The translations under genes and the position numbers were made by a program. A model generated the notes under the pieces. The model searched no databases and was not told the DNA's origin. It was given only the letters and a program-made list of their open reading frames with translations. Positions 3,660 through 52,558 of a stretch of DNA of 52,558 bases are shown here, one piece after another; the first letter of the stretch is position 1, and each line of letters starts with the position of its first letter. The stretch covers positions 1-52,558 of the forward strand of contig QPGO01000337.1 in the NCBI GenBank assembly GCA_008632985.1. The letters run 5' to 3'. This stretch comes from Psammoneis japonica. Its lineage: Eukaryota.

Positions 3660-3744
<85 letters not shown>

Positions 3745-9680: not shown

Positions 9681-9994
9681 TAGCAGAAACCCTCGTTCGA
9701 TTTGCAATCGACAACGACTGTATTAGTTTTAATGTTAGATATTATAGGTAAGAAGGAACATCTAGATCGTTGTGCCTAGAGTAGGTCTACTCTCTATGAT
9801 AAAGCGAGTGCAGGAACTCTAGCTAGCTAGTAGCAGTTCAGTTGTAAGTCCTCAAGTCTCGCGAGGAAATGCAACGCGACGTATGCCCGCGTGCCCGCCT
9901 CCTGCTCATCAATCAGAGGTTGGCGCCGGTACTTCCGGTAAAAAAAAAATGGGCGATCGCGACAGTGTTGTATTGCTCATTGCACCCATGCATC

Positions 9995-16181: not shown

Positions 16182-16559
16182 AGTGAGGCTCGAATCTTTG
16201 CTGTTGACCAAATCAAAACGATTTTGTGTAGGTCTGATTTTGCGGGAATTGGAAACGCAAGTTCTGTGCATCAGAATGATGGTCGTCCGAAATTTTCGTT
16301 TCGACAGGACCAAGAGATCCATGGATGATGGACAAAATTGGGACAACAGAACATATTTGAAAATAGCATGAACTTTGAAATCGTGTGAACGTACAGTACA
16401 TGTTTCACAACGGAGACTTTTTCAATGTTTATAATTCATGCATGAAAATATTTATAAAACCTAAGTATTGATTTTTGTGTATTCATAGTTCTCTTGTAGT
16501 TTTTTCCGTTCTGCTGTCGTTCCCCTCCGGCTCACTGCTTGTGTTACTCCCGGGCGATC

Positions 16560-17830
16560 GCTGCAGCAGGGCCCTCTCTATCTCTGTCTGCTCTGCTCTT
16601 AAAGTGCCATGTCCTGGCAGCCAGTGGCCAGCAGCTCTGTGAATCAATCATGAAAATCACACGCGACTCTTTTTACAGCCACTGCCTGGTGGCCATCCAC
16701 GCTGATGAGGGTGGAGGGGTGCATCGTTGCCACCACTTGGCTGAAAACAGCGGGTGTCCAGGCAGAAACCAAGCTCTCTCCACATCAGTGCCACCTGCAG
16801 TTTCTCACACTCACAAAGTGGCATTTCCATCTTGGAATTTTGAGTGTCACTGGTGGGTCATTGAAAAACAAAAAAACCAGCGCAGGCGCACACCCAGAGC
16901 TCTCTCGCATTTGAAAAAATGCAGAGGTGCAGCCAACAAAGGCTGGCGTCTTGGCTTGTGTCAGAGTGCAGGGCATGCTGTGCTGGTTTCTTTGCATCAC
17001 AAACTTTGTTGTTGCTCTGGCACTTGCCTTTGCAATGATTGCAACAGGCATGCCTGCCGCAGCCACCGATGATGCTGCACTTTTCCCGCGTCTGTCAGCT
17101 GCCCACAGCTGGCAGCTGACTGCACAGATGCGCACACTGCAAAATGTTATTCCTCGCACAAGACCTGCAACAGGCTGCAGGAGCACCATGTGACCAAGTT
17201 GTGTGGTGCAACTGGCCATTGTGCAAGTGACTTGCATTGTGCAAAGAGTCTGTGCAGGAGACGCGTTCCAGACGTAGGTGGGAATCCGTGTGACATTGGG
17301 CCCGTAGACTTCTACGTGCGAGCTCCGTAGTAAAATTATACGGTAATTAAAATGTCAATGATCGCCAACAGAAAATGAGGCAATTTTGCGAACGCACAAA
17401 CTCGCACATGATTGAAGTACATCATTTTTTACTTAGACAGTTACATTCTTCAGACATTGAAGAATGTAACTGGCGCATTATTGTTTCTATAAATTTGTTA
17501 TATAAAACGTCTGGGGCTTCGCAAAACAGCGAGTCTGGACAATTTTTTTTTAATATCACACGTAGAAATCTACGTACGAAACATACGACGGATGATAAAA
17601 ATCATTGTTGTCACACGTCAGCACTACGAGCTCCCACCTAGGGCTGGAACGCGTCAGGAGATCTGTGAGGTGCAGCGCCGAGCACGGTTGATTCTGAGCA
17701 TGCAGGAGCTGCAAAACTCCATGTGACATGGTGCAGTTTGAAGTTTCTGGCTGCTCTGCTTCTTGATCACAAAATGAAGGACCTGATGCAATGCAAGGAA
17801 ACCTGCCAAAAATGACAGAACAACAATTTG
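16560..17830. repeat. Partial third copy of the repeat found at 28740-30990 and 49480-51720, interrupted by a MITE
   Basis: gtcctggcagccagtg.ccagcagctct.tgaatcaa.catgaaaatcaca and gcagtttgaagtttc...tgatgcaatgcaaggaaacctgc shared by all three loci. Confidence 0.85.
17260..17655. mobile_element. 396-bp non-autonomous TIR element (MITE) with 4-bp TSD AGGA; essentially unmutated
   Basis: Left end gacgcgttccagacgtaggtggga; right end tcccacctagggctggaacgcgtc; agga at 17256-17259 and 17656-17659. Confidence 0.9.
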
Positions 17831-24400: not shown

Positions 24401-25174
24401 CACATGACATGGTCAGTCTCATCAACGCCATCCAGCAACAGTCAGAACTCATTGCAACATGCAGGCAACAATCAGCTGGAAGACAGAGGCTTTGACATCA
24501 CTGCAAGGTGCCCCATCTGTTCCCAGCTGATCAAGATTGTAAATCTTGGCAAGCACCATGTGTCAACAAACCAAGCTTTGCCGCTGGCATTGGGCAAACT
24601 GTCCAAGATGCAGCGAAAATTGGCTGAAGGTGTTCTGCACACCTCCAGGATCACATGCAAAGCAATGAGCCAAGCTGCCCCATGGTGGGCCACCTGCAAA
24701 GCACTCTGCACTTGACCTCATCATCCAAGACACAAAGCTGCCATCACCCAAGAAGAACAAGCCACCGCCACCCAAGAAGCAGCCACCCTGGAGAAGCTGC
24801 TTTGGGCATCATGCTGGTTGGAGCCAGAGCTCCTCCAGCCAAAGTGAGTGACTTGTTCCATTTTGGCACTGAGGCTGAATGTGTGGCCAGCAGCAAGCAA
24901 GACAGAACCAAAGACATGAAAGTGAGCATGTTCGTTTGTGACACCCGTGCAATGCCGGCCATTTCTTCATGCAGGCAGGCACTCTTGACTTGAGCAAAAT
25001 CATCCATTGCCTTGCATTGATTCAAAGGAAGGGTCAACCTTCAGGGCCTGCATGGAGCTGGTGGAGCAGGTGATGATGGATGAGCAGCACACTGATCTGA
25101 AAAAGAAGGAGACCTCGATCGACCCCGTCTGTTGCAAGTTGGGGACGCTGTGGACAACAAATGCAGCATGTTCA

Positions 25175-25635
25175 CTTGAAATGTTTGAGTGGAGCATGGG
25201 ACCCCAGTGACTCCAAATCCTGAGCGAAATCAACCTGTCTTGCATTGGGAAAGAGGGTGGCAGACAGAGCACAAGACCAAGAAAGGCAATGGCAAGCTTG
25301 TGCACCCTTTGGAAGCAAAGAAACAAATGCTTGAAATGTTTGAGTGGAGCAGGGGACCCCAGCAACTCCAAATCCTGAGCAAAACCAACCTGTCTTGCAT
25401 TGGGAAAGAGGGCGGCAGAGCACAACACCAAGAAAGGCAATGGCAAGCTTGTGCGCCCCCTTCGGAAGCAAAGAAACAAATGCTTGAAATGTTTGAGTGG
25501 AGCAGGGGACCCCAGCAACTCCAAATCCTGAGCAAAACCAACCTGTCTTGCATTGGGAAAGAGGGTGGCAGAGCACAAGACCAAGAAAGGCAGTGGCAAG
25601 CTTGCGCACACCCTTTCGGAAGCAAAGAAACAAAC
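25175..25635. repeat. Three tandem ~153-bp units
   Basis: cttgaaatgtttgagtggagca starts at 25175, 25330 and 25483. Confidence 0.92.
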
Positions 25636-26865: not shown

Positions 26866-29800
26866 TTGGCACATTCTCGCGTGAAAAAAAAATGCGCGCA
26901 GCAATCATTCTTGGCCGTTCAGATTAGAAGCCTGCACGTGCAATCGATCCTCCTTGCTTTGCTGTGTGTTGCATGTGAACATGCACTTCTAATTCACATG
27001 CCCCCATGCCCTGAGGTGTCAAAGGATTTTCTGTCAACGGAACAACAATCAAAGGAGCTTTGGAAAACAGTGGTGGTGTTTGGGATTGGATTGCCATGTC
27101 TTTGCCGGTGGTCACACCCACAATGGCTCTCGCACAACTCGGAAATCAGGTCCCTTTTGACTCTTTGCTTTTGACACCACTTCAACAGAAACGAGAAGCC
27201 GAGCTCATTTTCCACATCAAGAATGCGGCAAAACCAAGCAGACAACATCATTCGGACCGTCGTTGTCACTGAAACAATTGAGGCCACCACACCGTGCTTG
27301 CAGCATGACAATTGCAGTGCTTGAGCAGCAAACATGAACAACCAGGGGGCAAACGACAGAGGTGGACAGGATGACAGTGAAGGAAAGTCGCAGAGGAGGT
27401 TGCAGTCATGGACAGCCATTTGCACAATCGCAAGTGGCGTGGCTGCTGTCATTGCATTGCTTGTCACACTGGGTGATGAAGAAGATGACCCTTCACCATC
27501 AGACCCTGCGCCGACGCCACCCGAGGCCCGAGCCTCCGTCTACATTTTGTGTGAGGGCGATCCGCACGGGTGCCAACTGCATTGTCCATGCAGATTGGTG
27601 ACCGAATGTTTGCACCTGCCGGCAATGAAAATCCATTCCGTGTTGACAATGTCCCACTGGGCAATCAGGCACATTCCATGGACGGCCAAATGGCCTGCAG
27701 TGCTGTTGCTTCTTCTTGCTCTGCCTCTGGTGATGGCGAGGTTGACATCGCCAACGGGAAATCTTTCTCACTCTTTTGGCAGCAAGAGCCAGGAAGTGCT
27801 GTTTGCTCTGTTTGGCTTGGCTGGTTCTCTTCCTTCTTACTTGTTCACATGGCAAAGAACACACCTTGTCATCAAAGTCAGACATGTCGATTTATGTCGT
27901 AAAAACACTCCGTACAATGTACAAACTACAAGTGGTTTGCCATTGTGTCATTCTTTCAAATGCTGCTCAATTTTTCATTCTGTCTCTGCCTGATCAACAT
28001 GCAACAGATGCGTGCAATTACCTTTCTGAAAGCATCTACCTCATGAACCATTTGTGGGCTTTTTCTTTTTGATTTCCTCTGTCGATTCAAAATGTGAATG
28101 GAAATTTTGATTCCTTTGCCTTGCATGCTTTTGTGTTGCCATGCAGGTAGAGTGAGAGTGCCGTCGTAAAACCGCAGACGTCTTTGTCGATCTTGTTGTC
28201 ACAAATGACGTCGTCGACATGCCAACATTACATTGCTGTCCCTGATCCTAATTCGAAATGTGTCGGGTTCCCTCTTGGCACCTTGTGCCTCACACTGCAC
28301 AGTCACCATGACATGTGATCAACAGAATCGCCGTCAATTGTGCCAAAGCTGTCGAACTTGGAAACGGTCATAAACTCACAAGGCAGTCAGCAAATGTGGC
28401 AATTGCTTCAGGCGGTCTCCCAGAAACGCGTCATCAGTGACACATTGGTTCTTCGTCCAGTGATTTGGCCACCTTGTGGGTGCACGACATGTGCAACACA
28501 TTGCTGTGTCAGATGCACCGAAGAAAGAAGCTCATGTGCAAACCAACCCAACTGTTGGTGTGCTGACGTGAATCACCTGATGTTGCAATCGGTCCATCAG
28601 TGTTGCCATCGCCGCCATTCGATGCTCACTGCACTGCATTTCAAAATGGACTGAAAATAATGCGCAATTGCAAGAATGAAGTTCTCTTGCAGTTTTGTTT
28701 TTCTGTGCGACTTCTCGCTCCCCTCTCACTCGAATGCACAGCAGGCCCCTCTCTGTCTCTCTGCTCTACTCTCCAGTGGCAGAGAGTGCCGTGTCCTGGC
28801 AGCCAGTGACCAGCAGCTCTATGAATCAAACATGAAAATCACATGCAACTCTTTTTAGAGCCACAGGTGCCTGGTGGCCATTCGTGCTGATGAGGGGTGT
28901 GTCATTGTCCCACTCAGCAGAAAACAGCCAATGTCTCCAGGCAGAGACCAAACTCATGCCATGGCCACCTGCGGTCTCTCGTGGCATGCTGCTTGGAGTT
29001 TTGCCGCTGCACCTGACTCACAAAGTGGCACTTCCATCCTGGGATTTTGAGAGTGACTTGTGGGTCATTGAAAAACATGAAACTGGCGCTGAGTGCACAC
29101 ACCCAGAGCTCTGATGTTTGAGGAAAAATGCAGAGATTCAGCGGACAAGGCTGACGTCTTGGCTTGTGTCAGAGTGCGGGACACACTGTGCTGGTCTCTT
29201 CACCTTGCAACTTTTGTTGATGCTCTGGCACTTGCCTTTGCAGTTGCAGCAGGCATTGCTGCCACAGCTGCCGATGATGATGCTTTTCTGTGTTTGCAGG
29301 CTGCCCACAGTTGACAACTGATTGTGCAAAAGGGCACATTGAAAAAAGCAACTTCTTTTGTCACAAGAAGACCTGTGACAGGCTGCAAAAGTTCCATGAG
29401 ACCAAGTTGCAGCCATCGTGCAAGTGACTCACATTGTGTGAAGGGTCTGTGCTGCAAGATCTGCATGGGGTGCCGCACACAGAGTGCGGTCATTGACTCC
29501 ATGTGAGGACTCAAGCTCCACATGTTTTGCCATTGCACACACATGTGCTCTGCATGAAAAAGTTTTGCAATTTTGCACAACACAGAAAATCTCTGCCGGA
29601 GCACTTTGGTGTCATTCTTGCACAGGTTGCAGCGACACGTCTCAGATGCTTCTGTGAGTGCTGTGAGGCTGACACACAGCAATTCCCAGTGGCCGGCTCC
29701 CAATCAAGTCAGGGGGCTTCAAGATTTCCTGTGCATGCTGGTGCAGGCTAGATGACACCAATCATGGATGCTGGCACACTGACAAATTTGCCAGTGTGAG

Positions 29801-31838
29801 TCACACCAATGGCATGTCATCTGGAGGAGTGTAAAAAGCACAGCAAGCATTGTTTGTGGCAAACACTGGACCTGTCATGAGCTTCCCCACTGTTTTCTGT
29901 TGCAACCCAATTTTGCATTTGGCAACTCAGCAACCTGGTCTACCTTTTCTTGCTCTTGCACCCATTCTGAGCAGAAATTGTGGCTTTTTTGCCAATCAAA
30001 AGGGACCAGTCATTTTGCACTTGTTTCACTCTTTGAAGCCAAGCTTGGTTGCTCTGCTGTTGCCATTTGTGTTCATGTTGGCTGGCGTCAATTCCACAAC
30101 AGTCAATTTTCTGCCCTTTGGAGCACTTTTCAGGAGCCAAATCTTCAAGAGTCAGGCCTGCTTGAGCAGTGTCAAAAGGAAAACTGTCCTCCTCCAGCTT
30201 GGCCAGGCAGCACAGATTGGATCACACATTTGGACCTCCCAGAGTGGGAGTTGGTTGTGGGAAGCACATGACAAGACAGCACATGATGAGGAGGATGCTG
30301 ACTCATGGAAATCATCTCAACATCAGCAGGCAGAAGCTGAGCTTGCAGCTGTGTGTGACAAATGCCAGCAGGAGCACCTTGCCAAAAGAAACAGAGAGGT
30401 TCTGATGGACACTCCATGCACAAAAGATCACATGTTGCATTCCACCACTTCCAGAATTCAGCTCAGAGTTGTGTTGCTGAGGTCAAACCATGTCCAAAGG
30501 AGAACATCAACAAAGCAAAGGGCCAAGTGCTTTGTGGCACTTGCACCATTGCCAGCTGCTTCAGTGGGGTGTCACCTTGTTCAGGTGTTTCGCCAGTGCT
30601 GGCACAGCTGGCAAAGGAGCAACAGCACTTAAAACTAAGATTTGATTTTTTGGCTTTTTGTGTTGTTCAAAATGTGATCACTCTCACACAAGTGCAACTT
30701 TAAGGCAGTGTGGCATGACTGGAGTGCTGCCTGTGGTCTTTTTGGCTCAGCAACAATTCACCACTTCACATGGGTGGATGCAGCACAACATTCCAGCCCA
30801 GGTTTGTTGAAGAATGTGCAAAAGCAACCCGAGCAAGATTGCTGCCAAGTCAACCCAACATGTCAAAGCCACAAAGCTGCACATGATGCTGCACAGTTTG
30901 AAGTTTCCAGTTGCTCCAGCTCTTGATCACAGGATGAAGGAACTGATGCAATGCAAGGAAACCTGCAAAAAATGACAGAACCTGTTTGATGGTGCTTTTG
31001 CATTTGTTGTTCAAAGTGAGCAACTCCACAGTCAAACAAGTCAATCTTTTGGCACACACAGTTGATCCACTGTGCCTGAGGTTCCTTGGTTGCATGTGGC
31101 ATCACTCTGCAAATGGCATCTGCAATGCATTCTGTGCAACAACTTTTTCCTCACAGCATGCCAGCTGTCTTGATGATGTTTCTCTTCCACAGAAGAAAGA
31201 AGTGTTGAGATGTGTGCACAATGAAGGCTCATCCACCTTGCAAAGTTGCTGAAGTTGTTTGAAGTTGTCAGCGGGAATGCACGGGCAAGCATCCAGCATG
31301 TCAATCGCCTCTGCCAGCAAGCATGTGTTCAGGGCATCCAACATGACAGAGGCATCATGCTGGTTTCAGTCAGAAGTGGAGGTTCAAGTTGAAGCCTGCT
31401 TGGTGCATTTGCAACTGACTTTTTGTGTTTCTTTGCACAGCGCAATTCATGGCCACATTCTGCACCTTGTGCAAGCCCCCATCTGACATTGTGCTGCATG
31501 TTGAATGCCCCATTTGTCAAATTTTTGTGGTCAATGCATGCAACTGTCTGGTGACCAAGGAGCGCACCTCAAAACTCCTCAAGTGACCATGTTTCCATGA
31601 TTTTCAAGCAACTCACATCCGCTGTGGGTGCAGACAAGCTGAGTGCATCACTCAGCTTGCAGCTGCAAAATGCCACTGGCTTGTTTTCATGAGATGTTGC
31701 TGCTCCCAGCTGAAACTTGTCTGAAGCATCAGCGTGTGTGTCTCAACGCAAAAAAAAGTGTCTGGGTGAGTCAGGAGGGCCAACACCTTTTTTCATGGAC
31801 AACTGTGTGATGACATGGCGTTGGTGGCTGTGCATGTG
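26866..31838. repeat. ~5-kb direct repeat, copy A (copy B at 47581-52558)
   Basis: Colinear from ttggcacattctcgcgtgaaaa to ggacaactgtgtgatgaca; paired, near-identical ORF translations in the track. Confidence 0.95.
27334..27825 (+). pseudogene. Frameshifted copy of a small single-pass membrane protein gene carried in the 5-kb repeat
   Basis: WTAICTIASGVAAVIALLVTL helix, Pro/Asp linker, then the same domain as 48053-48559 continuing in ORF 27570 after a frameshift. Confidence 0.5.
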
Positions 31839-32016: not shown

Positions 32017-32097
32017 NNNNNNNNNNNNNNNNNNNNNNNNNNNNNNNNNNNNNNNNNNNNNNNNNNNNNNNNNNNNNNNNNNNNNNNNNNNNNNNNN
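32017..32097. other. Assembly gap (81 N)
   Basis: Run of n. Confidence 0.99.
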
Positions 32098-32827
32098 TTG
32101 TCCAACTGTTTCAGCAAATGGCAGGCACAACAATGTTGGCTGAAGTCAGAAGAACAAGACTTTGCAGTGGCTTCATCAGTGGCTGGCTGCTGTTGTTTGC
32201 GTGGTGGGAGCTGCTGCACTAAAAAGATCCAAAGGAGGGTGGATGAGTTGATTCAAATGATTTGATTCAAGTTGCACCATCTCTCTGTCTCTCTCCCTCT
32301 TTCTCAATGGCCTTTGTGCTCACAATCTGGCAGAATGAAACTGGGGGGCCAGTGCAGCCAATTCTCCATCAAGTGCAACAAACAAGCAAGGTGGCCAATG
32401 CAGGGCCACTCAATGGGACTTTGCCCATGCTGCAAGGTCAACAGCAAGGCACAACAGCATTGGCCAAAGTCAGAAGTGAGGCTTCTCTGTGGTGGCTTCG
32501 TCATCAGCCAGCAGGTGTTGCTGATGTGGTGGAACAAGCTGTTGTGTTAAAAAGATCCAGGTGGGAGGGGACTGGTTCTTGTGCCATCTTGTTCCCTCTC
32601 TCTTGTGCTCTCTCTCCAGCTTTCTCTCTCTCTGTCTCTGTCTCTCTCATCAGGCTTTCCACTTGCATTCCAGCAGGACAAAGCAGGGGGGGCTGTTGGC
32701 AGTGTGGAGGACATGGCAGGAAAAAAACAGCCAAGGCTTTGCAAGCTCTCTCTCTCTCTCTTTGTGGCCAACATGTGAGTGACAGGCAAGCCTCCCAGGG
32801 ATGCCGTTTGGCATGCCCACCTTGATG

Positions 32828-32996
32828 TGACAGACATCCGAGATGGGGAGCACACTCCCTTCTGTCGGACAGACTGGCACAGACAGCATGGAGAGATCCG
32901 ATGATCTCTCCTTTGCTCACTTTCTTTCTCATCTAGTGCATGATTGTCATCTGTCCTAGACATCCGTTAGATTGTCCCGACACCACCAGTCTGTGA
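32828..32996 (+). repeat. 5' LTR
   Basis: tgacagacatccgagatgggg...ccagtctgtga; aligns without gaps to the 3' LTR once the MITE is removed. Confidence 0.93.
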
Positions 32997-35480: not shown

Positions 35481-38400
35481 TTGCCCGCTGATCAAGACCA
35501 AGAATTTGAGTGCCTTGATGTGACCAGCACCCAGCATTTGTCACCCCTGTGCCATGCGCATCTCTCTCTGATTTTTTCTCCCCCGGAGTCACCTGCAACC
35601 TTTGCATCCTCAGCCACTCCAGTCATCCCCATCAATCATGTGCTTCATGATTCAATGATGTGTCATGCACAGATTGATGCTGGTGCTTGGGCATCCTGCA
35701 CAGGGGACAAGAACCTTCTTCATGCCTGTGCTCCATTTGGACCGGATGACCCTTGTCCTTTGAAGATGCTTCCTGCTGCTGAAGGCTCTGATGCGGTCCC
35801 TCATGGCTTTGGTTGTTTGCAAGTGCCTGCACACAATCCTGAAGGTTTCCTTCTTGCACGTGCCTTTTGCCATCCCAGCCTGCGTTCCACTTTGATTGAT
35901 GAACGTGATTTTGCACGGGCTTCTGGGTTTAAACCTCAGGCCATTCGATGCGAGCTCCTTGAGAAGACACGTGCTCATGGCACTTGCACTTGCACCGCTT
36001 CAACTGACACTCAAGAAGCAGTTGTCCATGGCATCCTCTGACATGGCAAGGCATTTGCACAACCCCTGGTTCCCCCGTCTGTGCCTCACATCTCTTTGCC
36101 ATCAATGACCCCTGACCTGTCCTTGGTTGATGACATTGATGATGCATGTCAACGTGCAGTTTTTTGTGTCAATGTTCAACAAAGTCCATCTGACCCCTTG
36201 CTGATGGATGCTGAGTTGTTCTTGATGCAGTGTGATTCGACTGCCCACATCTTGCCACCGCCATCTGCCCCTGCTCCGGTCCGCTCTCTCAAGGTTGAGA
36301 CTGAACGTCTTCCATGGCACCAATGACTTGGACATCCCAGCGACCACTGCTTGTGCAATGCTCACAAGCACATCAAGGGCATCCCGAAGTTCCAACATGC
36401 CAATCCCGTCCTTGACATTTGTCCTGCATGTGTCCAAGCCAAGCAAGTCAAGACTCCTGCTGGACCAAACACGACTCGAAAGGCAACCCAGCCACACCAA
36501 GGCCTCACTGTGGATTTTGCTTTTGCTGGCCAAGCTTCCAAGAATGAAGATCGCAAGTCTGGTTGTCTTGGACACAATGGCGAAACGTGTTGGATCACTG
36601 TCTGCGATCACCACACACGGATGCTCCATGGAGTGGCAAGGGTTTCCAAAGCCAGTCCTCTCAAGTGGCTCCACCGATTCTTGGATCGACATTCACCAAA
36701 TTGTCATGACAAATGTGTGTTTGTGGACCAAGGTGGGGAATTGAACAAAAATCTCAAAGTTCGTGACCTCTTTGAATGAGAATTTCAGTGTGACATCTGT
36801 CCTTCTGGCACTGGCACATCCAACCAATGTGGACCTGTTGAACACTCACATTTGGCTGTTGAAAACGCGATTCGTGCGATTTTAATTGGCGCCAACCTTC
36901 TGATTCGATTCTGGCCCCATGCTTTTTACCATTGCCTCCATGTCAAGAATGCTGCTCCTGCAAAAGATCAAGATGCAGCACCCATCACTCTTGCTGCTGG
37001 AAAGGTTGAAGATTTCACTGCTCTGAAGACTTTTGGATGTCGAGCATGGTCCAAACGGTCCGCTGCCCGTTCTGCTGCTTTCCGGACCAATTCCAAGAAG
37101 GGCGCATTCCTTGGCTGTCTCCCAAACACCCTGAAAAATGTCATGTGGTGGGATCCTGAGACTGACAAAGTCAAGATGGCCAAACATGTGCACTGCGATG
37201 AAGGTGTGAATGATCTGTTTTTTGATCAACTTCCTCCCAATGCCATCCATTTGCAATTTGCAACATGTGGAAAATGGACAACCTTTTCCAGCTGAAACAC
37301 AGGACACAACCGCTCCTGTGTTTGCCTCTTTGTTGAATCCTTTTGCTGCGACTGTTGCATGCACCATGAAACATCCCCCAAAGGATCCCACCTGTGGTTT
37401 TGGATTTTCCCAGTGTGCGCCAATGGACCATGTCTGTGCATCAGAAATCAAGCAGTGCAGTCCTGCGGCCTCTTTGTTGTCCTCCCTCCATGCTGCTTGC
37501 AACAAGATTGTGGGTGCATGCATTGTTTCTGTCAACAAGCGTGAAGTCTTTGCTCCAATGGATGCTGAAGAGGCTTTGTCTCAGGTCTTCCATGACGAAA
37601 TTCCGACCTTCGAGAGATTGCTTTTGCACCAGAACAATGGTTGGATTCTTGCACCCTTGATGAAGCATTTGAGGAAGCGGAGTTGTTTGAACCTGACTCC
37701 ATGGAGGATGACTCCCATGTTCCTGAACTCACCTTGGAGGATGTGCAATCTGTCACAGCCCTGCTCTGTCCTGATGATGATTTCTCAGATGAGGCTGTCC
37801 CAATGGATGTTTTCCATGCTCACCTCAATGCGATTAGCTCCCGCTCTCTCACTCTGGAGGAGGCTGCTCTTGACCGCCTCACTCGTGCCAAGCTTCATAA
37901 ACTTGACACATGGCCTGAATGGGAAGAAGGTGAGCAGCGTCAATTGGAGCAATTTTGTGCTCTTGGCATGTGTGGCCCTCCCCAACCACGTCCCCCTGGA
38001 GCAAATGTCGTGCATCTGCATTGGGATTGCATGGTGAAGCCAGATGGACAACGTCGTTCTCGGCAATGTGGAGATGGTTCCAAGTCGGCAATGCCGGCCT
38101 TGCATGAGCTGACTTCCACCTGTTTGTCATGTGTGGAACGTTCCATCGAAAAGATGTTCTCTTTGCTCTCAGCGCAGCTGTGTTGCATCATGTCTTTGGA
38201 GGTGATGCTCGGGATGCCTGTGCTCATTCTCCTGGCCCTTCACAGCCGGTTTTCATTGCTGTTGATGACGCATGTGCTGCCTGGTGTGAAAAGAGATTTG
38301 GCAAGAAAGTGCCCCACCACTGTGTTCTCCCGCTCAAGCATGCTCTTCAAGGCCACCCTGAAGCTGGTGTCCTCTGGGAAAAGCACATCAATTTGATTGC

Positions 38401-39603
38401 AACAGGTGCAAAACTTCTTTTCCGCAATGCCGCTCATGACAAGTGCATCTGCTCTGGTGAATGTGATGGTGTCAAGGTCCTTCTGCTCCATCAGGTCGAT
38501 GATTTTGCACTTGCTTGTCCCTCCAAAAAGATTGCAAAAGACATCTGCAACCACATTGGCAAGGCTCTCCAGATGGAAAATGAAGACACTCCTCCGTTCA
38601 AGCATTTGGGCTTGGTTGCTGAATTCAATGGCATTGGCATAATCCAAAATGATGGCTCGATTGCTGTCAATGTTGCCAGTTGCCTTGATCGTGTTTTCAA
38701 GACCCATGGCTGGGATGCTCCCACTGCAAATGAATCTGAGTCTGATTTCAAAGCTGCACCTGTGCCAGTTGATTGCATCCCTGACCTGTGTGCCGCTGAA
38801 GGTCCTGCAGAGGGTGCTCCTGAGTGTGATGTTCTCTCCGAGTCCCAGGGTTTCTCTTGCCGATCTGTCCTGGGTGAGTTGGTCTTTGCTCGCTCGTGTT
38901 GTCGTTTGGATGTTGGTTGTCCCATTGTTGCCTTGTCCAAGTTTTCCAAGGTTCCAGCTGAGATTCATTGTGATTCACTCAAGTGTGTGGCCAAGCATTT
39001 GCGGTGCACCAAACATTGGGGGCTGATGCGCAAGAAGTCCAAGTGTGATCCTGGTCTGCCTCCTCGCGATTTTGAATGGCTTGAGGATGATCCATCTCTT
39101 CCGGACTTCCCTCATGCTGATGACCTCTTCCAACTCCTTGGCTTCATTGATGCAGCACATGCCAGTGAACTGTGGCATTGCCGCTCCACTGCCAGATGTG
39201 CGCATGTCCTTGCTGGCGCTGCAATTGATTGTCATTGCCGTGCACAAATGATTGCAGCTGCCAGCTCCACAGAAGCTGAATTTCTCGCAGCTGTCACTGG
39301 TGCAAAACAGACCCTGCACTTCCGCATGGTTCTGGAAGAATTGGGCTTTCCTCAATGTGATCCTGCTCCCTTGCACATTGACAACTCCTCTGCCACCCAG
39401 ATGATCAATGACAAGGTGCCTGCGGAGCAATCCCGCCATGTTGACATTCAACATTTTGCTGTCCAAGACTGGCATGACACAGGCAAGACATTGTCACTCA
39501 ACATGTCCTGGGTGTCATTGACCCTGCTGATGTGCTGACCAAGGCTGTGGGCTGGGTGCTTCATTCCCACCATGCCCGCCATTTGATGGGACACTGCTGT
39601 TGA
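35481..39603 (+). pseudogene. pol: Copia pol (protease, integrase, RT, RNase H) with stops and frameshifts
   Basis: PR QIDAGA; IN WHQ*LGHPS, CPACVQAK, VDFAF, VDQGGEL; RT ALQGHPEAG, QVDDF; RNase H DAAHA, STEAEF, IDNS, RHVDI, LTKAVGW. Confidence 0.93.
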
Positions 39604-39742: not shown

Positions 39743-40175
39743 TGACAGGCCTGTTCCAGCTCCTGGTGCTCCGAGCGGGTTCCATTCCCATCATTTGGCA
39801 GTTTGTGCATTTGGTGCAATTGGCTTTTTCCAAACCCGTTTTTTGCCAAATCGAGTGGCAAGTGTGCACTTTACATGCATTTTTGGGTGTACACTCACCT
39901 TTCGATTTTCGAAACGATCAAAATTGAAGGAGTTGATTGCGCCAAACTGCGCAGAAAATCGGCCTCTCGCGTGATAAAAAGCAGATCACCTGGAGCTGGA
40001 ACAGGCCGACAGACATCTGAGATGGGGAGCACACTCCCTTCTGTCGGACAGACTGGCATGGACAGCATGGAGAGATCTGATGATCTCTCCTTTGCTCACT
40101 TTCTTTCTCATCTGGCACACGATTGTCATCTGTCCCAGACATCCGTTAGATTGTCCCGATGCCACTGGTCTGCAA
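39743..40175 (+). repeat. 3' LTR, interrupted after its fifth base by a MITE
   Basis: tgaca [MITE] gaca gacatctgagatgggg...ctggtctgcaa. Confidence 0.9.
39748..40007. mobile_element. 260-bp MITE with 4-bp TSD GACA, TIR related to the elements at 17260 and 20174
   Basis: gaca|ggcctgttccagctcctggtg ... cacctggagctggaacaggcc|gaca; the 5' LTR supplies the empty site. Confidence 0.92.
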
Positions 40176-41893
40176 TGATGCCGGCATCCGGCATTCAAAC
40201 AAGCACATGACAAAACACAACCTGGTCATTCTGCTGGAAAGCAGCCCCCAACCGAGTGCCATCAGGACATGCTCCTCCAACTCCCACCCCATGCAAATGA
40301 GTGTCCTCAAGTTGTCTCTGTTTGGCATCATCAAACAAGGAGGTCTTGAAACACACATGCAGAGCTTTGGACATTTCAGCAGCAAGTGGCTTCATGATGG
40401 GAAGCACCGCTCTTTTGAGGAGAAAGCAGCAAGGCTGACAAGTGTGTCTTGTGCCGTTGCTTTGTGACTAAAGTTGCTCTGCTGTCATCACAATTCTCAC
40501 AAGGAAGGCATTTCATGTTTGCACATCATGCAATTGGAGCTTTGTGCTCACTTGTTGTCAACATGAGCTGCACTTGACTGCTTGTTGTCAATGTGTGCCA
40601 CACCTTCTGTTTTGGCTCTTTTTCAATTTTTCATTGTCACATCTGTTGTCAAATGCAGTGGTTGTGAATGGCTGTCAGCTGACAATCAAAACATGAAATT
40701 TCATGTCCTGACATTGCTGCTGTGGGTGTTTTGGCCCCATGGAGCTGGCCACAATTCACAGAAAACATGCCACCTGCACAAACTCCACGCATTTTCTGCG
40801 TGACCTTCACACAACCCATCTTCTCTGAGGTGAAGAAGCCAACAATCAGATTTTTGGCAATGACTTGACAACCACTTTTTGTTGCTGTGGGCACATTTGT
40901 TTTGTTGTTGAAGCGACAGCCTTGGGGCATGTGTGTTGCATGGGGCTTTGAGAAGACAGGCAGCAGGAGCATTCTTCTGAGAGCTTGTTTGAATTTTTTG
41001 CAGGTGTGCTGAAGAGCTGATGATGCCTCCTTTGATTTCTTGACTTCAAATGGTCCACCCCTTGCTCGCAGTGTTTGAAGTTGAGTTGCCAACTGTGAGT
41101 GAACTGCAAGCAGAGAGCCAGGCCTCATCACATTCATGCCAAAGCACAGCACCAAGAGAACACAGGAGAGCAGCTTGGGGTGGGTTGAGTTTGAAAAACT
41201 GAGCTCAGGATTGACTCATTTGAAGAAGCCATTGAAAGCAGTGGTCATGAAGAGAAAGTGGCTGGTCTGTGTGTGTTGGTTGTTTTGGAAAGGAGCAGAT
41301 TTGGCTGCTTTGGACACCAAGGCTTTGCATTCAATGCCTTTGCCTGGGTCTCTCCACTTGCCCCCCAAAGACAACAACATGTGCAGCCACAAATGTGCTC
41401 TTTTGACAAATGAAATGTGTTGCAGAAACAAACCATGGCTGCCATTGACCTGTGCCATCATGCATTTAGATGAGGGTTTGCAGATGCCATGAATGAGAAG
41501 AAGGCATCTCAAAAGAAGCAGACATCATCTTGTTCATTGTGGGTGTGAGTGTCTTTGTTGAGCGAGGCAAGATTGGTTTGTTTGGCAACAAAGCAATCAT
41601 TTTCAACCATGAGTTCTTCAGGGCATGAAATTTTTGTTGTTGTTTAAAGTGATGTCTTGGAAGTGCTTTAGATGGGAGACAACAACTGAAGTGTCGGCAT
41701 TGGCTCATTGTGGAATTCGCTCCTGCCGGGGGCAATCATTTGCGGATGGGGGGCTGCAGATTTTTGATGAGATTCCTTTTTTCTGCCGGTGTTGCCATGA
41801 GAAATTCGGACTCCTGTCCCAGCACAAAAACTCAGTGTTTTTCTACATGCACAGCTTCTGCGAGGTCCTGTGGTGGTTTAGAATGAAATTTGA

Positions 41894-44800
41894 GACGAGT
41901 TTGGAGAATCCAATCTCTGTCCCGGTTGTGGCCAAAGTTTTTTGCGAACAGCCTGCCATTGGAGACACTCACCGACGTGTTGCTCAGTTGCCCAAGAGTT
42001 GCAAACCCAAGATCTAATCCCAGATCAAAGCGACATTCCTGCCACAATGGAGGGGCCACCCAAAGAAAGCAGCAGTTCTTCCTCTTTGTCCTCTGATGAT
42101 GACGAATCCCATCCGAGGCGATCTGCTTGCAGCAGATTCCCAAGATCTTCAACGAGTGATCCAAGCAGCAGCCCCTTGTTCCCCTCCCAGGATGACGCAC
42201 CGCACGGAATGGATGACATGTCCTCCATTTCATCAAACCACAGCATGCACAGAGTTGAACTTTGAGCAATGAACGATTTGGATGTTGGCGGTGGTCAATC
42301 CTTTGCTGCAGTGTTGGACGTGACAATGGAGGAGGAAGAGGACATTCACGATGAGGATCAATGTTTGGGGATCAGGTGTGACGCTCCTGCAGAAGAGGCC
42401 TTGGCTTCTGCTCCCTCTTTGACAAATCTTGATGGAGCTTGCGCAGAGTTGTGCAAGAAGATCATGGACACATGTGGTGCTCCCCTGGAATTGTGCGATT
42501 GCATTGTTGATTTCATTGAGAGGCACACTGGCAACAGCAACATTGAGCTTGGTGCAGTTCTGCCAAGGAGAAAAGAGTTGATGCGCACCTTAACTGATCA
42601 TTTCCCTCTTCCACCCAGCGAGTCTGTTCCTGTCACTCTAGAAACCAAAAATTTCAAAACCGGTTTGCCAAAACGAATGTCAGTGCCAAGATGGGATTTC
42701 ACAAAGGTTTGGGAACAGTTTTTGCTCGATCCTCACCTGTGGTGCAGCAGAGAGAACATGGCCAATCCAGACAATCCTTTTGGGAAGTGCAAAGCAAAGG
42801 GGCCGGATGACAAGTGCCTTTTGGCGGGTGAGTGGTGCAGGCGCAGTCACGAAGAATGGACAACTGACCTGGAGAAACAATTTCTCGAGTGCAATGTCAT
42901 TTGCCTCGACAAGACTGGCAGGACACAAGGGATGGGATCATGTTGCGGAGAACCAGTGATCATGACCTCTGCGCATGTTGCCTTCAACAAATGGTCAGAC
43001 AAGAGTGTCTGGAAACCAATTGGTTGTCTCCCGGATTTGGAAAAGATGTCATCATCTGCGGCAAAGAATCTCTCAAACAATCGCAAGGCAGAGAAGGGAC
43101 GCTCGTCAAGAGACTGCCACACTTGCTTGCGTGTTGTTTTGGAGCCACTTTTGGAAGTCATGAGAAAAGGAGGCATGAAAACATGTGTGCGACGGGGGGA
43201 TGAGATGCGACACCTCCACGTAATCCCACTGATCGTTCTGATCACAGGAGACACAAAAAGCGGCGACTGTCTCGTCAGACGATGCGGAGGTCACAACTGT
43301 CGTCAACATTGCTGTCGTTTCTGCCTCACTGGCTTCAACAAACTGGATGACCCATGGATTGAATGCAAGTTTGTCTGAGGACTGGATCTCCACCAAGTGC
43401 AAACTAAGGCCAACGACGACAACAGATCAGACCAAGAAAGGAAGCACTGGTTGGGCATCTTGCATTGCCTCAAGCAACACAACGCACCTGCCAACTGTCT
43501 TTTTGAGGCAGACTTTGGCGCACAACCATGCGGTGTTGCCCTTGTGACAGCAAGTGACATGATGCATCTCTTTGAAAATGGCACCTTGAAAAGGGCAATC
43601 AATTCATTTGTAGACAGCATGACACCTGTGGTTGCAAGTGAGGTGGACAGCACAGTGGAAAGGATTTTCAGCAATCACCGGTCAATTTGCAAAGCATCCT
43701 TTTTGTGAACAAACTTCAAAGGAGGAGCAACGTCGCTTGCCTTCCTCAACTCTCACCACTGGGCTGGAATGGCTTTTGTTTTCTACCTTCTCCTGTCAAC
43801 CAGCGAGGGACGAAACGCATGTGAGTCATGCTTCCTTGACAAGGACGCAGATGAACCCATTGTTCCAGAGAATCGCAAGATGCCCAAAGCAAACTTTGAG
43901 AGTTGCTGCCAACCCAGTGAGCACTTGGACTCTGACAATGAAAGGTCGGAGGAGTCTGAAGAGGGTGACTGGGACGAAAATGAGGATGAGAAAGAGGAGA
44001 GTGAGGCTGAGGATGGTGATGACAACCAAAAAAAGAAAAAACACAAGGGAAAAAGACTCAACTGCAGCGTCCGGCAATTCATTCAATTGCTCGAGGACCT
44101 TCTTGTCTTCCACGCATGGCACAGGCTGGGCGATCCACCCATCACAAGCGCAACTCCCAGTTCATCTGTTCAGAAAACAAACAAGAAAATCCGTCTCCTC
44201 ATTGACTGGACAGTGCAACTCGTCCCGCGAACAGAAGGATGCAGGTGGAAGCTTCAAAAGCTTCATGAAACACTCCATCTCCCAGTGTTTCTTTGTTGTT
44301 GCCGACATGCGATGAACTTTGACGCAGGGTTGGGGGAATGTCTCTTGAAAGACTTTTTCAAGCTGCCATCATCTGCCGCACAACAATGCAACCTTGACAG
44401 TTTTCTGAAGCAGGTCGTGTCGCGCATGGAGGACCAAATGAGGCTCAACGCCGCAATTTCAGCTGACAGTTGGATTTTGCCAACTGGGAAAAAGGAATCA
44501 TCAAGAGTCAGGACAGACAATCACACGCTGGGAGGAAGCACGTTCACTCTCACCTGCAACCAAGGGATTGGTGCTGTGACGTTTGAGTGGAGCAGCTTGC
44601 ATGCTCGTTGCCAAGTTCATCCTGTGTCACCAAACTTCATGTCGGAAAAGTGGGAGGATTGTGTTGGTGAAGACAGTGAAAACACACACCTGACTTGCAA
44701 GACAGAGTTTTGCAATGCAAGCGGGAGGGATGCGCACCGTGCGCACCCCAATTGCAAAAGTGAAGGACCATGGCATGACTTTGCCCATGTGACCTTTGGC

Positions 44801-47580: not shown

Positions 47581-50500
47581 TTGGCACATTCTCGCGTGAA
47601 AAAAAAAAATGCACGCAGCAAAGAATCATTCTTGGCCGTTCAGATTAGAAGCCTGCAAATGCAATCGATCCTCCTTGCTTTGTGTGTGCAGCACTGCATG
47701 TGATGATGTTCTTCTAATTCATGTGCCCCCATGCCCTGAGGTGTCAGAGGATTTTCCATCAACGGAATGACAGTTGAGGAGCTTTGGAAAATGGTGGTGG
47801 CATTTGGGATTGGATTGCCATGTGCAGTGTGTCTTTAGTCACACACAACAGCTCTCGCATGACTTGGAAATCAGGTCCCTTTTGACTTTACTTTTCACCA
47901 CTTCAACAGAAACGAGAAGCCGAATTCATTTTCCACATCAAGAACACGGCAACACCAAGTGGACAATGTCTTCGGACCGTCATTGTCGCTGAACCAATTG
48001 AGGCCACCACACCATGCTTGTGGCACAACAACGCAGTGCTTGAGCAGCAAACATGAAACAATCAGGGGGCANAGGTGGACAGGACAATGGTGAAGGAAAG
48101 TCGTGGAGGAGGTTGCAGTCATGGACGGCCATTTGCACAATCGCAAGTGGCGCGGCTGCTGTCACTGCATTGCTTGTCACACTGGGTGATGAAGATGACC
48201 CTTCACCATCAGACCCTGCACCGATGCCACCCGAGGCCCCTGCGCCAACGCCACCCAATGCCCGAGCCTCCGTCCACATTGTGCATGGAGGCGATTCGCA
48301 CGGGTGCCCACCGGCACTGGATTTGTCCATGCAGATTGGTGACCGAGTGTTTGGACCTTGTGAAAATCCATTCCGTGTTGACAATGTCCCGCTGGGCAAT
48401 CAGGCATGTTCCACAGATGGCCAAACAACCTGCAACGCCATTGACTTTTCTTGCTCTGCTTTCAGTTGTGGCAAGGTTGACATTGCCAATGGGAAATCTT
48501 TCTCACTCTTTTGGCAGCAAGAGACAGGAAGTGTTGTTTGCTCCATTTGGCTCAACTGATTCTCTTCCTTCTTGCTTGTTCACCAATGTGCATGAGAAGA
48601 TTGCTGCAGGAAAGAACACACCTTGTCATCAAAGTCATGTCGACATGTGTCCGAAAAAAAAAAGACACACACCGCACAACATGCAAACTGCAAGCAGTTC
48701 ACAGTTGCACCATCCTTTCAAATGCTGCTCAATCATTCATTCCATCTCTGCCTGATCAACATGCGCAATTGCCTTTCTGAAAGCATCCACCTTGTTGACC
48801 ATTTGGGGGCTTTTCCTTTTTGATTCCTCTGTCGATTCAAAATGCGAATGGAAATTTTGATTCCTCCGCCTTGCACACTTTTGTGTTGCCACTTAGAGCA
48901 TGGGTGCCATCGTAAAACCGTTGACGTCTTTGTTGATCTTGTTGTCGTAAATGACGTCATCAACATGCCACCATTGCGTTGCTGTCCCTGATCCCAACTC
49001 GAAATGCATCGGGTTCCCTCTTGGCACCTTGTGCCTTTCATCCTGCACAGTCACCATGACATGTGATCAACAGAATTGCCATCAATTGTGCCAAAGCTGT
49101 CGAACTTGGAAACGGTCATAAACTCACAAGGCAGTCAGCAAATGTGGCAATTGCTTCAGGCGGTCTCCCAGAAACGCGTCATCAGTGACACATTGGTTCT
49201 TCGTCCAGCAATTTGGCCACCTTGCATGGGCACACGACATGCGCAACACATGCACCAAAGACTGAAATCATGTGCAAACCAACCCAACTGTTGGCGCGCT
49301 AATGTGGAATCACCCAATGTTGCAACTGGTCCATCAGTGTTGCCATCATCGCCATTCGATGCTCACTGCACTGCATTTCAAAATGGGCTGAAAATGCGCA
49401 ATTGCAAGAATGAAGTTCTCTTGCAGTTTCATTTTTCCCGTGTGACTTCTTGTTCCTCTCTCACTCGAATGAACAGCAGGCCCCCTCTCTGTCTCTCTGC
49501 TCTGCTCTCCAGTGGCAGAGAGTGCCGTGTCCTGGCAGCCAGTGACCAGCAGCTCTGTGAATCAATCATGAAAATCACACACAACTCTTTTTAGAGCCAC
49601 AGGTGCCTGGTGGCCATCCGTGCTGATGAGGGGTGTGTCATTGTCCCACTCAGCGGAAAACAGCCAATGTCTCCAGGCAGAGACCAAACTCATGCCATGG
49701 CCACCTGCGGTCTCTCCTGGCATGCTGCTTGGAGTTTTGCCACTGCAGCTGACTCACAAAGTGGCACTTCCATCCTGGGATTTTGAGAGTGACTTGTGGG
49801 TCATTGAAAAACATGAAACTGGTGCTGAGTGCACACACCCAGAGCTCTGATGTTTGAGGAAAAATGCAGAGATTCAGCGGACAAGGCTGACGTCTTGGCT
49901 TGTGTCAGAGTGCGGGACACACTGTGCTGGTCTCTTCACCTTGCAACTTTTGTTGATGCTCTGGCACTTGCCTTTGCAGTTGCAGCAGGCATTGCTGCCA
50001 CAGCTGCCGATGATGATGCTTTTCTGTGTTTGCAGGCTGCCCACAGTTGACAACTGATTGTGCAAAAGGGCACATTGAAAAAAGCAACTTCTTTTGTCAC
50101 AAGAAGACCTGTGACAGGCTGCAAAAGTTCCATGAGACCAAGTTGCAGCCATCGTGCAAGTGACTCACATTGTGTGAAGGGTCTGTGCTGCAAGATCTGC
50201 ATGGGGTGCCGCACACAGAGTGCGGTCATTGACTCCATGTGAGGACTCAAGCTCCACATGTTTTGCCATTGCACACACATGTGCTCTGCATGAAAAAGTT
50301 TTGCAATTTTGCACAACACAGAAAATCTCTGCCGGAGCACTTTGGTGTCATTCTTGCACAGGTTGCAGCGACACGTCTCAGATGCTTCTGTGAGTGCTGT
50401 GAGGCTGACACACAGCAATTCCCAGTGGCCGGCTCCCAATCAAGTCAGGGGGCTTCAAGATTTCCTGTGCATGCTGGTGCAGGCTAGATGACACCAATCA

Positions 50501-52558
50501 TGGATGCTGGCACACTGACAAATTTGCCAGTGTGAGTCACACCAATGGCATGTCATCTGGAGGAGTGTAAAAAGCACAGCAAGCATTGTTTGTGGCAAAC
50601 ACTGGACCTGTCATGAGCTTCCCCACTGTTTTCTGTTACAACCCAATTTTGCATTTGGCAACTCAGCAACCTGGTCTGCCTTTTCTTGCTCTTGCACCCA
50701 TTTTGAGCAGAAATTGTGGCTTTTTTGCCAATCAAAAGGGACCAGTCATTTTGCACTTGTTTCACTCTTTGAAGCCAAGCTTGGTTGCTCTGCTGTTGCC
50801 ATTTGTGTTCATGTTGGCTGGTGCCAATTCCACAACAGTCAATTTTCTGCCCTTTGGAGCACTTTTCAGGAGCCAAATCTTCAAGAGTCAGGCCTGCTTG
50901 AGCAGTGTCAAAAGGAAAACTGTCCTCCTCCAGCTTGGCCAGGCAGCACAGATTGGATCACACATTTGGACCTCCCAGAGTGGGAGTTGGTTGTGGGAAG
51001 CACACGACAATGCAGCACATGATGAGGAGGATGCTGACTCATGGAAATCATCTCAACATCAGCAGGCAGAAGCTGAGCTTGCAGCTGTGTGTGACAAATG
51101 CCAGGAGGAGCACCTTGCCAAAAGAAACAGAGAGGTTCTGATGGACACTCCATGCACAAAAGATCACATGTTACATTCCACCACTTCCAGAATTCAGCTC
51201 AGAGTTGTGTTGCTGAGGTCAAACCATGTCCAAAGGAGAACATCAACAAAGCAAAGGGCCAAGTGCTTTGTGGCACTTGCACCATTGCCAGCTGCTTCAG
51301 TGGGGTGTCACCTTGTTCAGGTGTTTCGCCAGTGCTGGCACAGCTGGCAAAGGAGCAACAGCACTTGAAACTCAGATTTGATTTTTTGGCTTTTTGTGTT
51401 GTTCAAAATGTGATCACTCTCACACAAGTGCAACTTTAAGGCAGTGTGGCATGACTGGAGTGCTGCCTGTGGTCTCTTTGGCTCAGCAACAATTCACCAC
51501 TTCACATGGGTGGATGCAGCACAACATTCCACAGGTTTGTTGAAGAATGTGCAAAAGCAACCCGAGCAAGATTGCTGCCAAGTCAACCAACATGTCAAAG
51601 CACAAAGCTGCACATGCTGCATGCTGCAGCAGTTTGAAGTTTCCAGTTGCTCCAGCTTCTTGATCACAGGATGAAGGAACTGATGCAATGCAAGGAAACC
51701 TGCAAAAAATGACAGAACCTGTTTGATGGTGCTTTTTGCATTTGTTGTTCAAGTGAGCAACTCCACAGTCAAACAAGTCAATCTTTTTGGCACACAGTTG
51801 ATCCACTGTGCCTGGGTTCCTTGGTTGCATGTGGCATCACTCTGCAAATGGCATTGCAATGCATTTGGGCAACACCTTTTTCCTCAGCATGCCAGCTGTT
51901 TGATGATGTTTCTCTCCACAGAAGAAAGAAGTGTTGAGATGTTGTGCAATGAAGGCTATCACACTTGCAAAGTTTCTGAAGTTGTTGAAGTTGTCAGCAG
52001 GAATGCATGGGCAAGCATCCATGTCAATTGCCTCTGCCAGCAAGCATGTGTTCAGGGCATCTAACATGACAGAGGCATCATGCTGGTTTCAGCCAGAAGT
52101 GGAGGTTCAACAAGTTGAAGCCTGCTTGGGTGTGCATTTGCAACTGACTTTTTGTGTTCCTTTGCACAGTGAATTCATGGCACATTCTGCACCTTGTGCA
52201 AGCCCCATCTGACATTGGCTGGCATGTTGAATGCCCCATTTTGTCAAGTTTTGTGGTCAGTGCATGCAACTGTCTGGTGACAAGGAGTGCACTTCAAACT
52301 CTCAGTGACCATGGTTTCATGATTTTCAAGCAACTCACATTGCTGTGGGTGCAGACAAGCTGAGTGCATCACTCAGCTTGCAGCTGCAAAATGCCGCTGG
52401 CTTGTTTTTCATGAGATGTTGCTGCTCTCAGCTGAAACTTGTCTGAAGCATCAGTGTGTGTGTCTCAAAGCAAAAAGAGTGTCTGGGTGAGTCAGGAGGG
52501 CCAACACCTTTTTTCATGGACAACTGTGTGATGACAGGTGTTGGCAGCCGCGCATGTG
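47581..52558. repeat. ~5-kb direct repeat, copy B (runs to the window end)
   Basis: Colinear with 26866-31838. Confidence 0.95.
48053..48559 (+). pseudogene. Open but TpA-mutated copy of the small membrane protein gene (168 aa)
   Basis: TM helix, PSPSDPAPMPPEAPAPTPP linker, ~95-aa Gly-rich domain with no Tyr; one n at 48072. Confidence 0.5.

Follow-up and report, generated by a model that had tools for sequence, protein, structure and literature searches.

Repeat-confined conversion of TpA dinucleotides into TpG and CpA in transposable elements of the diatom Psammoneis japonica

A stretch of 52,558 nucleotides from the diatom Psammoneis japonica (contig QPGO01000337.1 of assembly GCA_008632985.1; here called the window) contains a dead Ty1/Copia-type retrotransposon whose reverse transcriptase (RT)/RNase H reading frame has lost every tyrosine codon. 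Here, we show that this loss belongs to a much broader one, in which the dinucleotide TpA was changed to TpG or CpA. The change has this direction, is specific to the dinucleotide, is restricted to sharp-edged repeat blocks, and is separable from the CpG decay found in the same DNA. It is seen again in public data, in other Copia and Plavaka copies of diatom type. We consider it likely that the footprint reflects a DNA-level hypermutation of TpA to TpG or CpA that is targeted to repeats, near completion, spares genes, and probably proceeds by adenine deamination, beside CpG decay.

Results

Tyrosine codons are missing from a dead Copia element

An earlier note on this DNA, based on its letters alone, had remarked that an open reading frame (ORF) of 469 amino acids contained no Tyr and had proposed that conserved Tyr residues now read as Cys or His. 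The frame, here taken from stop to stop, lies in a broken polyprotein remnant.

35577-39603, plus strand: protease-integrase-RT-RNase H remnant, colinear by tblastn with intact polyproteins of 1421-1429 amino acids
38108-39538, plus strand: Tyr-free RT/RNase H frame of the dead Copia element, 476 amino acids, stop to stop

The translation of the longer frame likewise holds zero Tyr. In its relatives Tyr accounts for 3.66% of residues on average (range, 2.36-4.50%; n = 60), so that about 17 would be expected, and the probability of finding none at the relatives' frequency is 2e-8. The frame is approximately 50% identical to diatom Copia polyproteins, with best matches from Nitzschia inconspicua, Cylindrotheca, Fistulifera, and Fragilaria; the Pfam domain RVT_2 is recognized with an E value of 7.8e-5, a score that falls under the gathering threshold because of the mutations in the RT. 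The motifs quoted in the earlier note, such as DKCIC and FSCRS, are present in this translation, except for MGHC, which lies in the next frame piece (39487-39603) and reads MGHY in the relatives' consensus.

Tyr columns were aligned with the 58 of 60 relatives whose BLASTP match exceeded 380 query residues. At the 22 columns with Tyr in at least half of these relatives, the window reads Cys at 12 (TGT/TGC), His at 5 (CAT/CAC), Phe at 3 (TTT), Arg at 2 (CGC), and Tyr at none, which bears out the proposed exchange for Cys and His. The note had named Cys or His in active relatives as evidence that would refute it; these relatives do not have them there, and at several replaced columns Tyr is found in 58/58 relatives (window codons at 38123, 38450, 38996, and 39230). 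Where a residue is conserved in at least 80% of the relatives, the frame retains 146/218 residues overall and 0/13 Tyr. We also made the comparison with intact pol proteins that the note had suggested, using the 97 of 120 relatives with at least 1,250 amino acids and more than 2% Tyr. Across the whole pol remnant, 21 conserved Tyr codons have become TGY (14), CAY (4), CGC (1), or TTT (2) (Y, pyrimidine), and no TAY is left, supporting the assumed direction from TAY to TGY and CAY.

The pol remnant is interrupted by three in-frame stops and four frame changes, and the element is therefore dead for reasons beyond the loss of Tyr. A SH3_retrovirus domain is recognizable at 36780-37292 (E = 1.3e-9). 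The intact relatives of 1421-1429 amino acids carry PF13976, PF25597, and PF07727, with the integrase ahead of RT/RNase H as is the order in Copia. Paired long terminal repeats (LTRs) with a 5-bp target-site duplication and a polyprotein of Copia order identify a CoDi-like diatom Ty1/Copia element; with its stops, frame changes, and replacement of all conserved Tyr, it does not qualify as intact and potentially active.

The target is the dinucleotide TpA

In centring on Tyr, the earlier note captured the direction of change and drew its target too narrowly, as the dinucleotide TpA is affected at any codon position. A single TA remains in positions 37980-39603 (at 38640, in an ATA codon), an observed/expected ratio of 0.01. 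The note had also recommended following TpA at other codon positions, and there changes are found both across codon boundaries and in ATA codons. Thr has become Ala at 7 of the 12 Thr columns conserved in at least 80% of relatives, in 6 of these 7 because an ACN codon preceded by T became GCN. Among 14 conserved Ile columns, 4 now encode Val, and all 4 follow a codon ending in T, again a change of TA to TG over the boundary. Two further conserved Ile codons now read ACA and ATG, as expected from ATA. TA is also gone from the LTRs, from noncoding DNA, and from other repeat families, over about 30 kb. Since TpA was lost at all codon positions and outside coding DNA, the loss of Tyr is a by-product of a mutation process acting on DNA and not aimed at the protein.

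Depletion forms sharp-edged blocks of repeats

The element lies in the largest of several depleted parts of the window.

23001-52558, no strand assigned: TpA-depleted repeat domain, extending to the window end; 119 TA, observed/expected 0.06
2350-4130, no strand assigned: isolated TA-free block with internal repeats, 1 TA in 1.78 kb, between normal genic sequence
16675-17274, no strand assigned: TA-free block, 1 TA; matches a third repeat copy at 16564-17255, 73% identical

In the domain from 23001 to the end, observed/expected ratios are 0.06 for TA, 0.38 for CG, 1.74 for TG, and 1.69 for CA, while AT (0.88), AA (1.23), and TT (1.17) are normal; the genic stretch 4001-15000 has 0.53 for TA and 0.98 for CG. 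Relative to the median of 72 nondepleted Copia loci, the domain has lost approximately 1,098 TA and 682 CG and gained approximately 1,604 TG plus CA, so that losses and gain roughly balance. TAA and TAG have become rare, at 3.8 and 2.2 per kb versus 15.2 and 15.6 per kb in the genic region, and for this reason long spurious ORFs arise (41 ORFs of at least 80 amino acids in 6 kb).

Depletion is block-wise, and its edges are sharp. The adenylosuccinate synthetase gene, about 300 bp from the isolated block at 2350-4130, has normal TA. The block at 16675-17274 is flanked by 18 TA in 370 bp on the left and 29 TA in 365 bp on the right; its limits coincide with those of the repeat copy that it matches, and this copy is related to 28739-29452 and 49474-50188. 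Every depleted block within the window that could be classified is a repeat, and in this one window the depletion is confined to repeat blocks, with adjoining host sequence unaffected. Two short islands between TA-free blocks, at 17275-17639 and 20751-21250, have normal or high TA; they may belong to the host or represent younger insertions not reached by the process. Within TA-free DNA, a tandem array at 25144-25604 consists of three 153-bp units that are 63-96% alike.

TA and CG are depleted in the same blocks, both being essentially zero in 2892-4130 (no CG occurs at 2892-4181), and both end as TG or CA. This raises the possibility of one machinery acting on both self-complementary pyrimidine-purine (YR) steps, with TpA loss as a side activity of a CpG methylation/deamination system. 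At 21501-22750, however, TA is down to 0-3 per 250 bp while CG stands at its normal density of 9-19 per 250 bp, and the two losses are therefore separable. Together with the CG content of related loci described below, this makes a single machinery unlikely.

A sequencing or assembly artefact has, in our view, negligible probability. The window does contain an assembly gap of 81 N (32017-32097), yet its genic parts are normal, independent contigs of a sequencing run (X1) agree with it but for 1-6 differences per 350-470 bases, and the same signature appears in unrelated metagenome assemblies. The gap lies about 730 bp upstream of the 5' LTR of the Copia element, and around 32100-32540 the X1 contigs have loose ends and several alternative joints.

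LTRs and repeat copies diverged at YR dinucleotides

Duplicated sequences within the domain provide information on the time and place of the change.

32828-32995, plus strand: 5' LTR, 168 bp (possibly 169), preceded by the target-site duplication TGATG at 32823-32827
40007-40174, plus strand: 3' LTR, 168 bp (possibly 169), followed by A and then TGATG at 40176-40180
26866-31838, plus strand: copy 1 of a repeat of about 5 kb
47581-52558, plus strand: copy 2 of this repeat, continuing past the window end

The two LTRs of an element are identical at integration. Those of the Copia element now show 16 differences, all of them transitions and all within YR dinucleotides, which cover just 78 of the 168 positions; no other substitution is found. 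Among these differences are five adjacent TG/CA double differences, two sites with TA versus TG/CA, and four with CG versus TG. Because the LTRs started out identical and differ only at YR, some of the change happened in the chromosome after insertion, and at least part of the TpA loss acted on integrated chromosomal DNA.

The copies of the 5-kb repeat are 94.0% identical over 4,880 comparable columns. They display 41 TG/CA double differences, each of which implies that an ancestral TA or CG mutated separately in the two copies. TA in one copy faces TG/CA in the other at 20 sites, versus 9 shared TA, and CG faces TG/CA at 53 sites, versus 59 shared CG. Differences within YR dinucleotides (155/293) exceed the expectation modestly, as nearly half of all positions lie in YR; our argument from this pair thus rests on the 41 adjacent double differences, along with the LTR result, and not on the YR share. 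By our own arithmetic a model of homogeneous rates accounts for only about 12 of the 41 discordant sites, and we therefore assume that rates differed among sites or that the first 2 kb split earlier. As an outgroup for the pair, the third repeat copy (16564-17255) was rejected, since it is itself TA-free and cannot polarize changes.

The pair combines a 2-kb part that is older and diverged with a 2.5-kb part that is nearly identical, a mosaic that points to gene conversion or to elements of different ages joined into one. In run X1, 6,112 contigs at least 85% alike cover 20 kb of the window and differ from it by 1,194 transitions and 246 transversions. Their summed depth is about 100 at 27.3-29.3 kb, 1,000-2,500 over most of the Copia element, and 4,700-9,200 at 42-46 kb; this is not a copy number and gives only a hint of multicopy families.

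A DNA transposon relic is depleted alike

Among 102 ORFs of at least 110 amino acids from the depleted parts, a Pfam scan recovered only Copia domains and one weak match, to Plavaka.

42266-43375, plus strand: Plavaka-type DNA-transposon transposase relic, 0 Tyr and 26 Cys in 370 amino acids

This second element is unrelated to the Copia element. Its match to Plavaka, a CACTA/KDZ-related family of DNA transposases (PF18759; E = 1.3e-4), reaches 21.7 bits, with the gathering cutoff at 26.3. The relic has 449 homologs (best phmmer E = 5e-62), and three of the four that were scanned, P0361, P0365, and P0370, pass this cutoff with 28.4, 29.6, and 33.7 bits. Tyr has a median of 3.3% in 108 aligned homologs (of 150 listed) versus none in the relic, and its three strongly conserved Tyr columns all read TGC in the window. 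Replacement of Tyr by Cys or His was also seen in 3 of the 108 homologs. Pfam matches of depleted ORFs to UL128, GlgX_C, and CD20 were at chance level (E = 4e-4 to 8e-3) and were disregarded.

Related loci show the direction and the sequence context of the change

Seven of 240 retrieved Copia relatives have little Tyr, and at conserved Tyr columns they read Cys or His. Among 80 related loci on metagenome contigs, the TA observed/expected ratio is below 0.2 in four and below 0.3 in six, and ranges from 0.37 to 0.91 in the rest. Relatives 85-89% identical to the depleted loci have normal TA, and depletion is thus specific to copies, not to families. Two metagenome loci that are 99.4% identical, L044 and L064, are mosaics, with 2-7 TA per 250 bp in the first 3.5 kb or so (Copia pol) and 9-20 in the rest, which may mark either a sharp block boundary or an intermediate stage in some other organism.

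The depleted loci and their nondepleted relatives allowed us to polarize changes, with TA taken as ancestral where at least 75% of up to eight nondepleted relatives per locus carry it. Six depleted loci have 262 ancestral TA, of which 63 were kept, 129 became TG, 66 CA, and 1 CG, and 3 changed otherwise. Six nondepleted control loci kept TA at 254/307 sites, so that retention is 0.24 in depleted loci versus 0.83 in controls. Other dinucleotides were kept at 75-94% in the depleted loci, and for CG retention was 0.76 there versus 0.77 in controls. In addition, the depleted Copia loci have CG observed/expected ratios of 0.69-0.79, a further point against one machinery for both YR steps. To explain an Arg codon at an expected Tyr, the earlier note had invoked occasional double hits from TA to CG. 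These are unneeded: TA became CG at just 1 of the 262 polarized sites, whereas in the same set TG changed to CG at 16/451 and CA at 18/508 sites (each about 3.5%). One or two CGC among some 20 converted Tyr codons are what a later ordinary transition is expected to produce.

TA survived in 13/27 YTAR, 32/127 YTAY, 7/52 RTAY, and 2/15 RTAR contexts (R, purine). In the window, surviving TA are enriched in TTAA and in CTAA/TTAG; ATAT occurs 0 times in the depleted region versus 40 times in genic DNA, and ATAC/GTAT once versus 64 times. On the coding strand, TG outnumbers CA by 129:66 in the metagenome loci and by 14:4 in the Tyr codons of the window. Approximately two TG per CA would fit either a preference for 5'-TAY or a sense-strand bias; the symmetric class RTAY, with TG:CA at 28:16, does not separate the two.

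Such an excess of TG on the sense strand, and the change of A to G after T, which is the classical neighbor preference of ADAR, would be in line with ADAR-like editing of A after U in retrotransposon RNA that was then fixed by reverse transcription. However, CA outcomes, that is, T-to-C changes on the sense strand, are common (66/262 sites and 4/21 Tyr codons), and the Plavaka relic, which as a DNA transposon has no RNA intermediate, shows equal loss. Unclassified repeats and noncoding DNA over 30 kb are affected as well, and LTRs that were identical at integration have come to differ at YR dinucleotides only. RNA editing is consequently a very unlikely explanation, and as the sole cause it is largely refuted.

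It was also considered whether a TA-poor composition might be inherited or selected, active lineages having come to avoid TA, for instance as protection from a nuclease that reads TA or from stop codons. One part of the 5-kb repeat was indeed already TA-free when copied, run X1 holds many diverged family copies, and TAA and TAG are rare. We nevertheless regard this as extremely unlikely: the Copia element is dead, Tyr residues kept in 58/58 or 97/97 relatives are replaced in it, close relatives of the depleted metagenome loci have normal TA, and the two LTRs came to differ at TA and CG sites once inserted.

Genes and other features of the window

Ordinary genes occupy the first 16 kb of the window.

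4451-5737, minus strand: adenylosuccinate synthetase, an uninterrupted ORF; diatom proteins and transcripts match it best, with identities up to 83%

Its matches include Epithemia, Amphora, Seminavis, Mayamaea, and Cyclotella; together with the diatom matches of the Copia frame, they led us to regard the window as nuclear DNA of a diatom. By eye, the translation of ORF 7020-7553 (minus strand) resembles a fucoxanthin-chlorophyll a/c light-harvesting protein, in keeping with a diatom origin. An ORF of 1,175 amino acids at 12894-16421 (minus strand) encodes a long Pro/Ser/Thr repeat and a C-terminal hydrophobic stretch; the repeat gives rise to a local spike in GC skew at 15-16 kb and to overlapping ORFs on both strands. 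A tandem duplication of about 440 bp (11571-12011 and 12012-12455; 98% identical) lies at and just past the end of ORF 9848-11587. It is evidently young, stands in TA-normal DNA, and is without TA loss.

Discussion

The observations made here are in our view best brought together in the following way. Changes of TpA to TpG or CpA are A:T to G:C transitions on either strand and affect repeats and transposons. Chemically, an enzyme would deaminate adenine to hypoxanthine at 5'-TA in DNA, YTAR sites being partly protected, and the role of the changes may be a genome defence that disables repeats permanently, resembling repeat-induced point mutation (RIP) with opposite polarity. The CpG loss in the same blocks would most simply be the usual decay of methylated cytosine. 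Other candidates do not fit: GC-biased gene conversion because AT, AA, and TT are untouched, UV photoproducts at TpA because TA-rich intergenic DNA adjoins the blocks, and selection on expressed RNA because the elements are dead.

Several points weigh against this interpretation. The adenine-deaminase step is one that we infer, and targeting was judged from one window of the genome. Both in the LTRs and in the repeat pair, sites discordant for TG and CA may trace back to CpG as well as to TpA, and differences that strictly involve TA and arose after insertion number only 2 between the LTRs and 20 between the repeat copies. Thirty-nine of the 41 double differences of the pair fall within its first 2 kb, while positions 28866-31366 are almost identical between the copies and already TA-free; this part was copied after depletion, and hence TA loss is not all private to each copy. 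Furthermore, the flanking-base preference is built on small counts, and some sense-RNA editing would likewise be in line with the surplus of TG relative to CA on that strand.

It is tempting to speculate, if tentatively, that diatoms, and perhaps the group of stramenopiles, alveolates, and rhizarians (SAR), possess a dedicated system of genome defence, in which a DNA adenine deaminase acting on 5'-TA, preferably TAY, is brought to all repeated or silenced elements and removes their TpA to saturation; in function, this would mirror fungal RIP. The sense bias of roughly 2:1 might then stem from transcription of the target, either as a guide or as a requirement. We hold this extended proposal to be possible rather than probable.

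Our literature searches found no paper on TpA loss in diatom transposons, and the sole counterpart that they returned is a preprint on the chlorarachniophyte Bigelowiella natans. In mutation-accumulation lines of this alga, TpA changed to TpG or CpA in two integrated viral regions at approximately 1,000 times the background rate; according to the preprint, the changes were exclusively TpA transitions and were confined to foreign DNA, the rest of the genome being normal (Mettrop et al., bioRxiv 10.64898/2026.01.13.699255). It further describes a long-term footprint of TpA depletion with gain of CpA and TpG, an enrichment of reverse-transcriptase and DDE endonuclease domains among TpA-depleted coding sequences, and, as a hypothesis only, an ADAT2/TadA-like DNA adenine deaminase as the agent (bioRxiv 10.64898/2026.01.13.699255). 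Diatoms, stramenopiles, retrotransposons, and CpG all go unmentioned in its main text (bioRxiv 10.64898/2026.01.13.699255).

Both cases involve only TpA-to-TpG/CpA changes, only foreign or repeated DNA, and chromosomal DNA in place. B. natans is a rhizarian, whereas the host here is a diatom and thus a stramenopile. The depletion described here is near saturation (0.06 over 30 kb versus 0.45 in the B. natans giant-virus region), and it falls on an LTR retrotransposon, a DNA transposon, and further repeats instead of on integrated viral DNA. The accompanying CpG decay, the flanking-base effect, and the bias of TG over CA also set it apart from the account of B. natans. For B. natans a de novo rate was measured, whereas the diatom case is known here from its sequence footprint.

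RIP of ascomycetes is alike in acting at the DNA level and on repeats only, with fairly sharp edges, a dinucleotide context, and transitions only, and in disabling transposons. It changes CpA to TpA (bioRxiv 10.64898/2026.01.13.699255, Discussion). In the window the polarity is opposite: TA is destroyed, TAA and TAG vanish, and long spurious ORFs appear, and with TpA at 0.06 and CpA at 1.69 the RIP signature of CpA-to-TpA change and TpA excess is absent. By its change RIP creates TA and stop codons, and it needs the RID cytosine methyltransferase homologue and a sexual cycle. Decay of methylated CpG by deamination of 5-methylcytosine shares the TG/CA products and operates in these blocks too (CG, 0.38); unlike the process described here, it cannot remove TA, and the two losses are separable. 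The animal ADAR and APOBEC enzymes likewise leave a deamination-type hypermutation of mobile elements fixed in the genome. Their substrates are RNA or intermediates of reverse transcription, and their signatures are confined to one strand, whereas here both strands, a DNA transposon, and integrated LTRs are affected. ADAR prefers a 5' U (bioRxiv 10.64898/2026.01.13.699255, Discussion). A sense-only A-to-G pattern of the ADAR type is not what we found, given CA at 66/262 sites, the affected DNA transposon, and LTRs that diverged after integration.

To our knowledge, textbooks treat targeted hypermutation as a genome defence only in fungi, where it is RIP, and in animals, whose deaminases act on retroelements. 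An A:T to G:C process specific to TpA is so far on record from a single 2026 preprint and a single rhizarian alga, and the footprint described here is a new instance, in diatoms and at saturation, of this very recently described kind of hypermutation. Its presence on diatom retrotransposons, DNA transposons, and repeats and on environmental diatom-type elements suggests that the process is widespread in diatoms, a major group of primary producers in the sea. TA-free DNA yields long false ORFs, and such repeats are likely misannotated because their mutated transposon proteins drop below Pfam thresholds. The signature of missing TA, doubled TG and CA, and conserved Tyr changed to Cys or His is a simple marker for genome surveys. 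It also offers a starting point toward the enzyme, which might attract interest as a naturally occurring editor of adenine in DNA.

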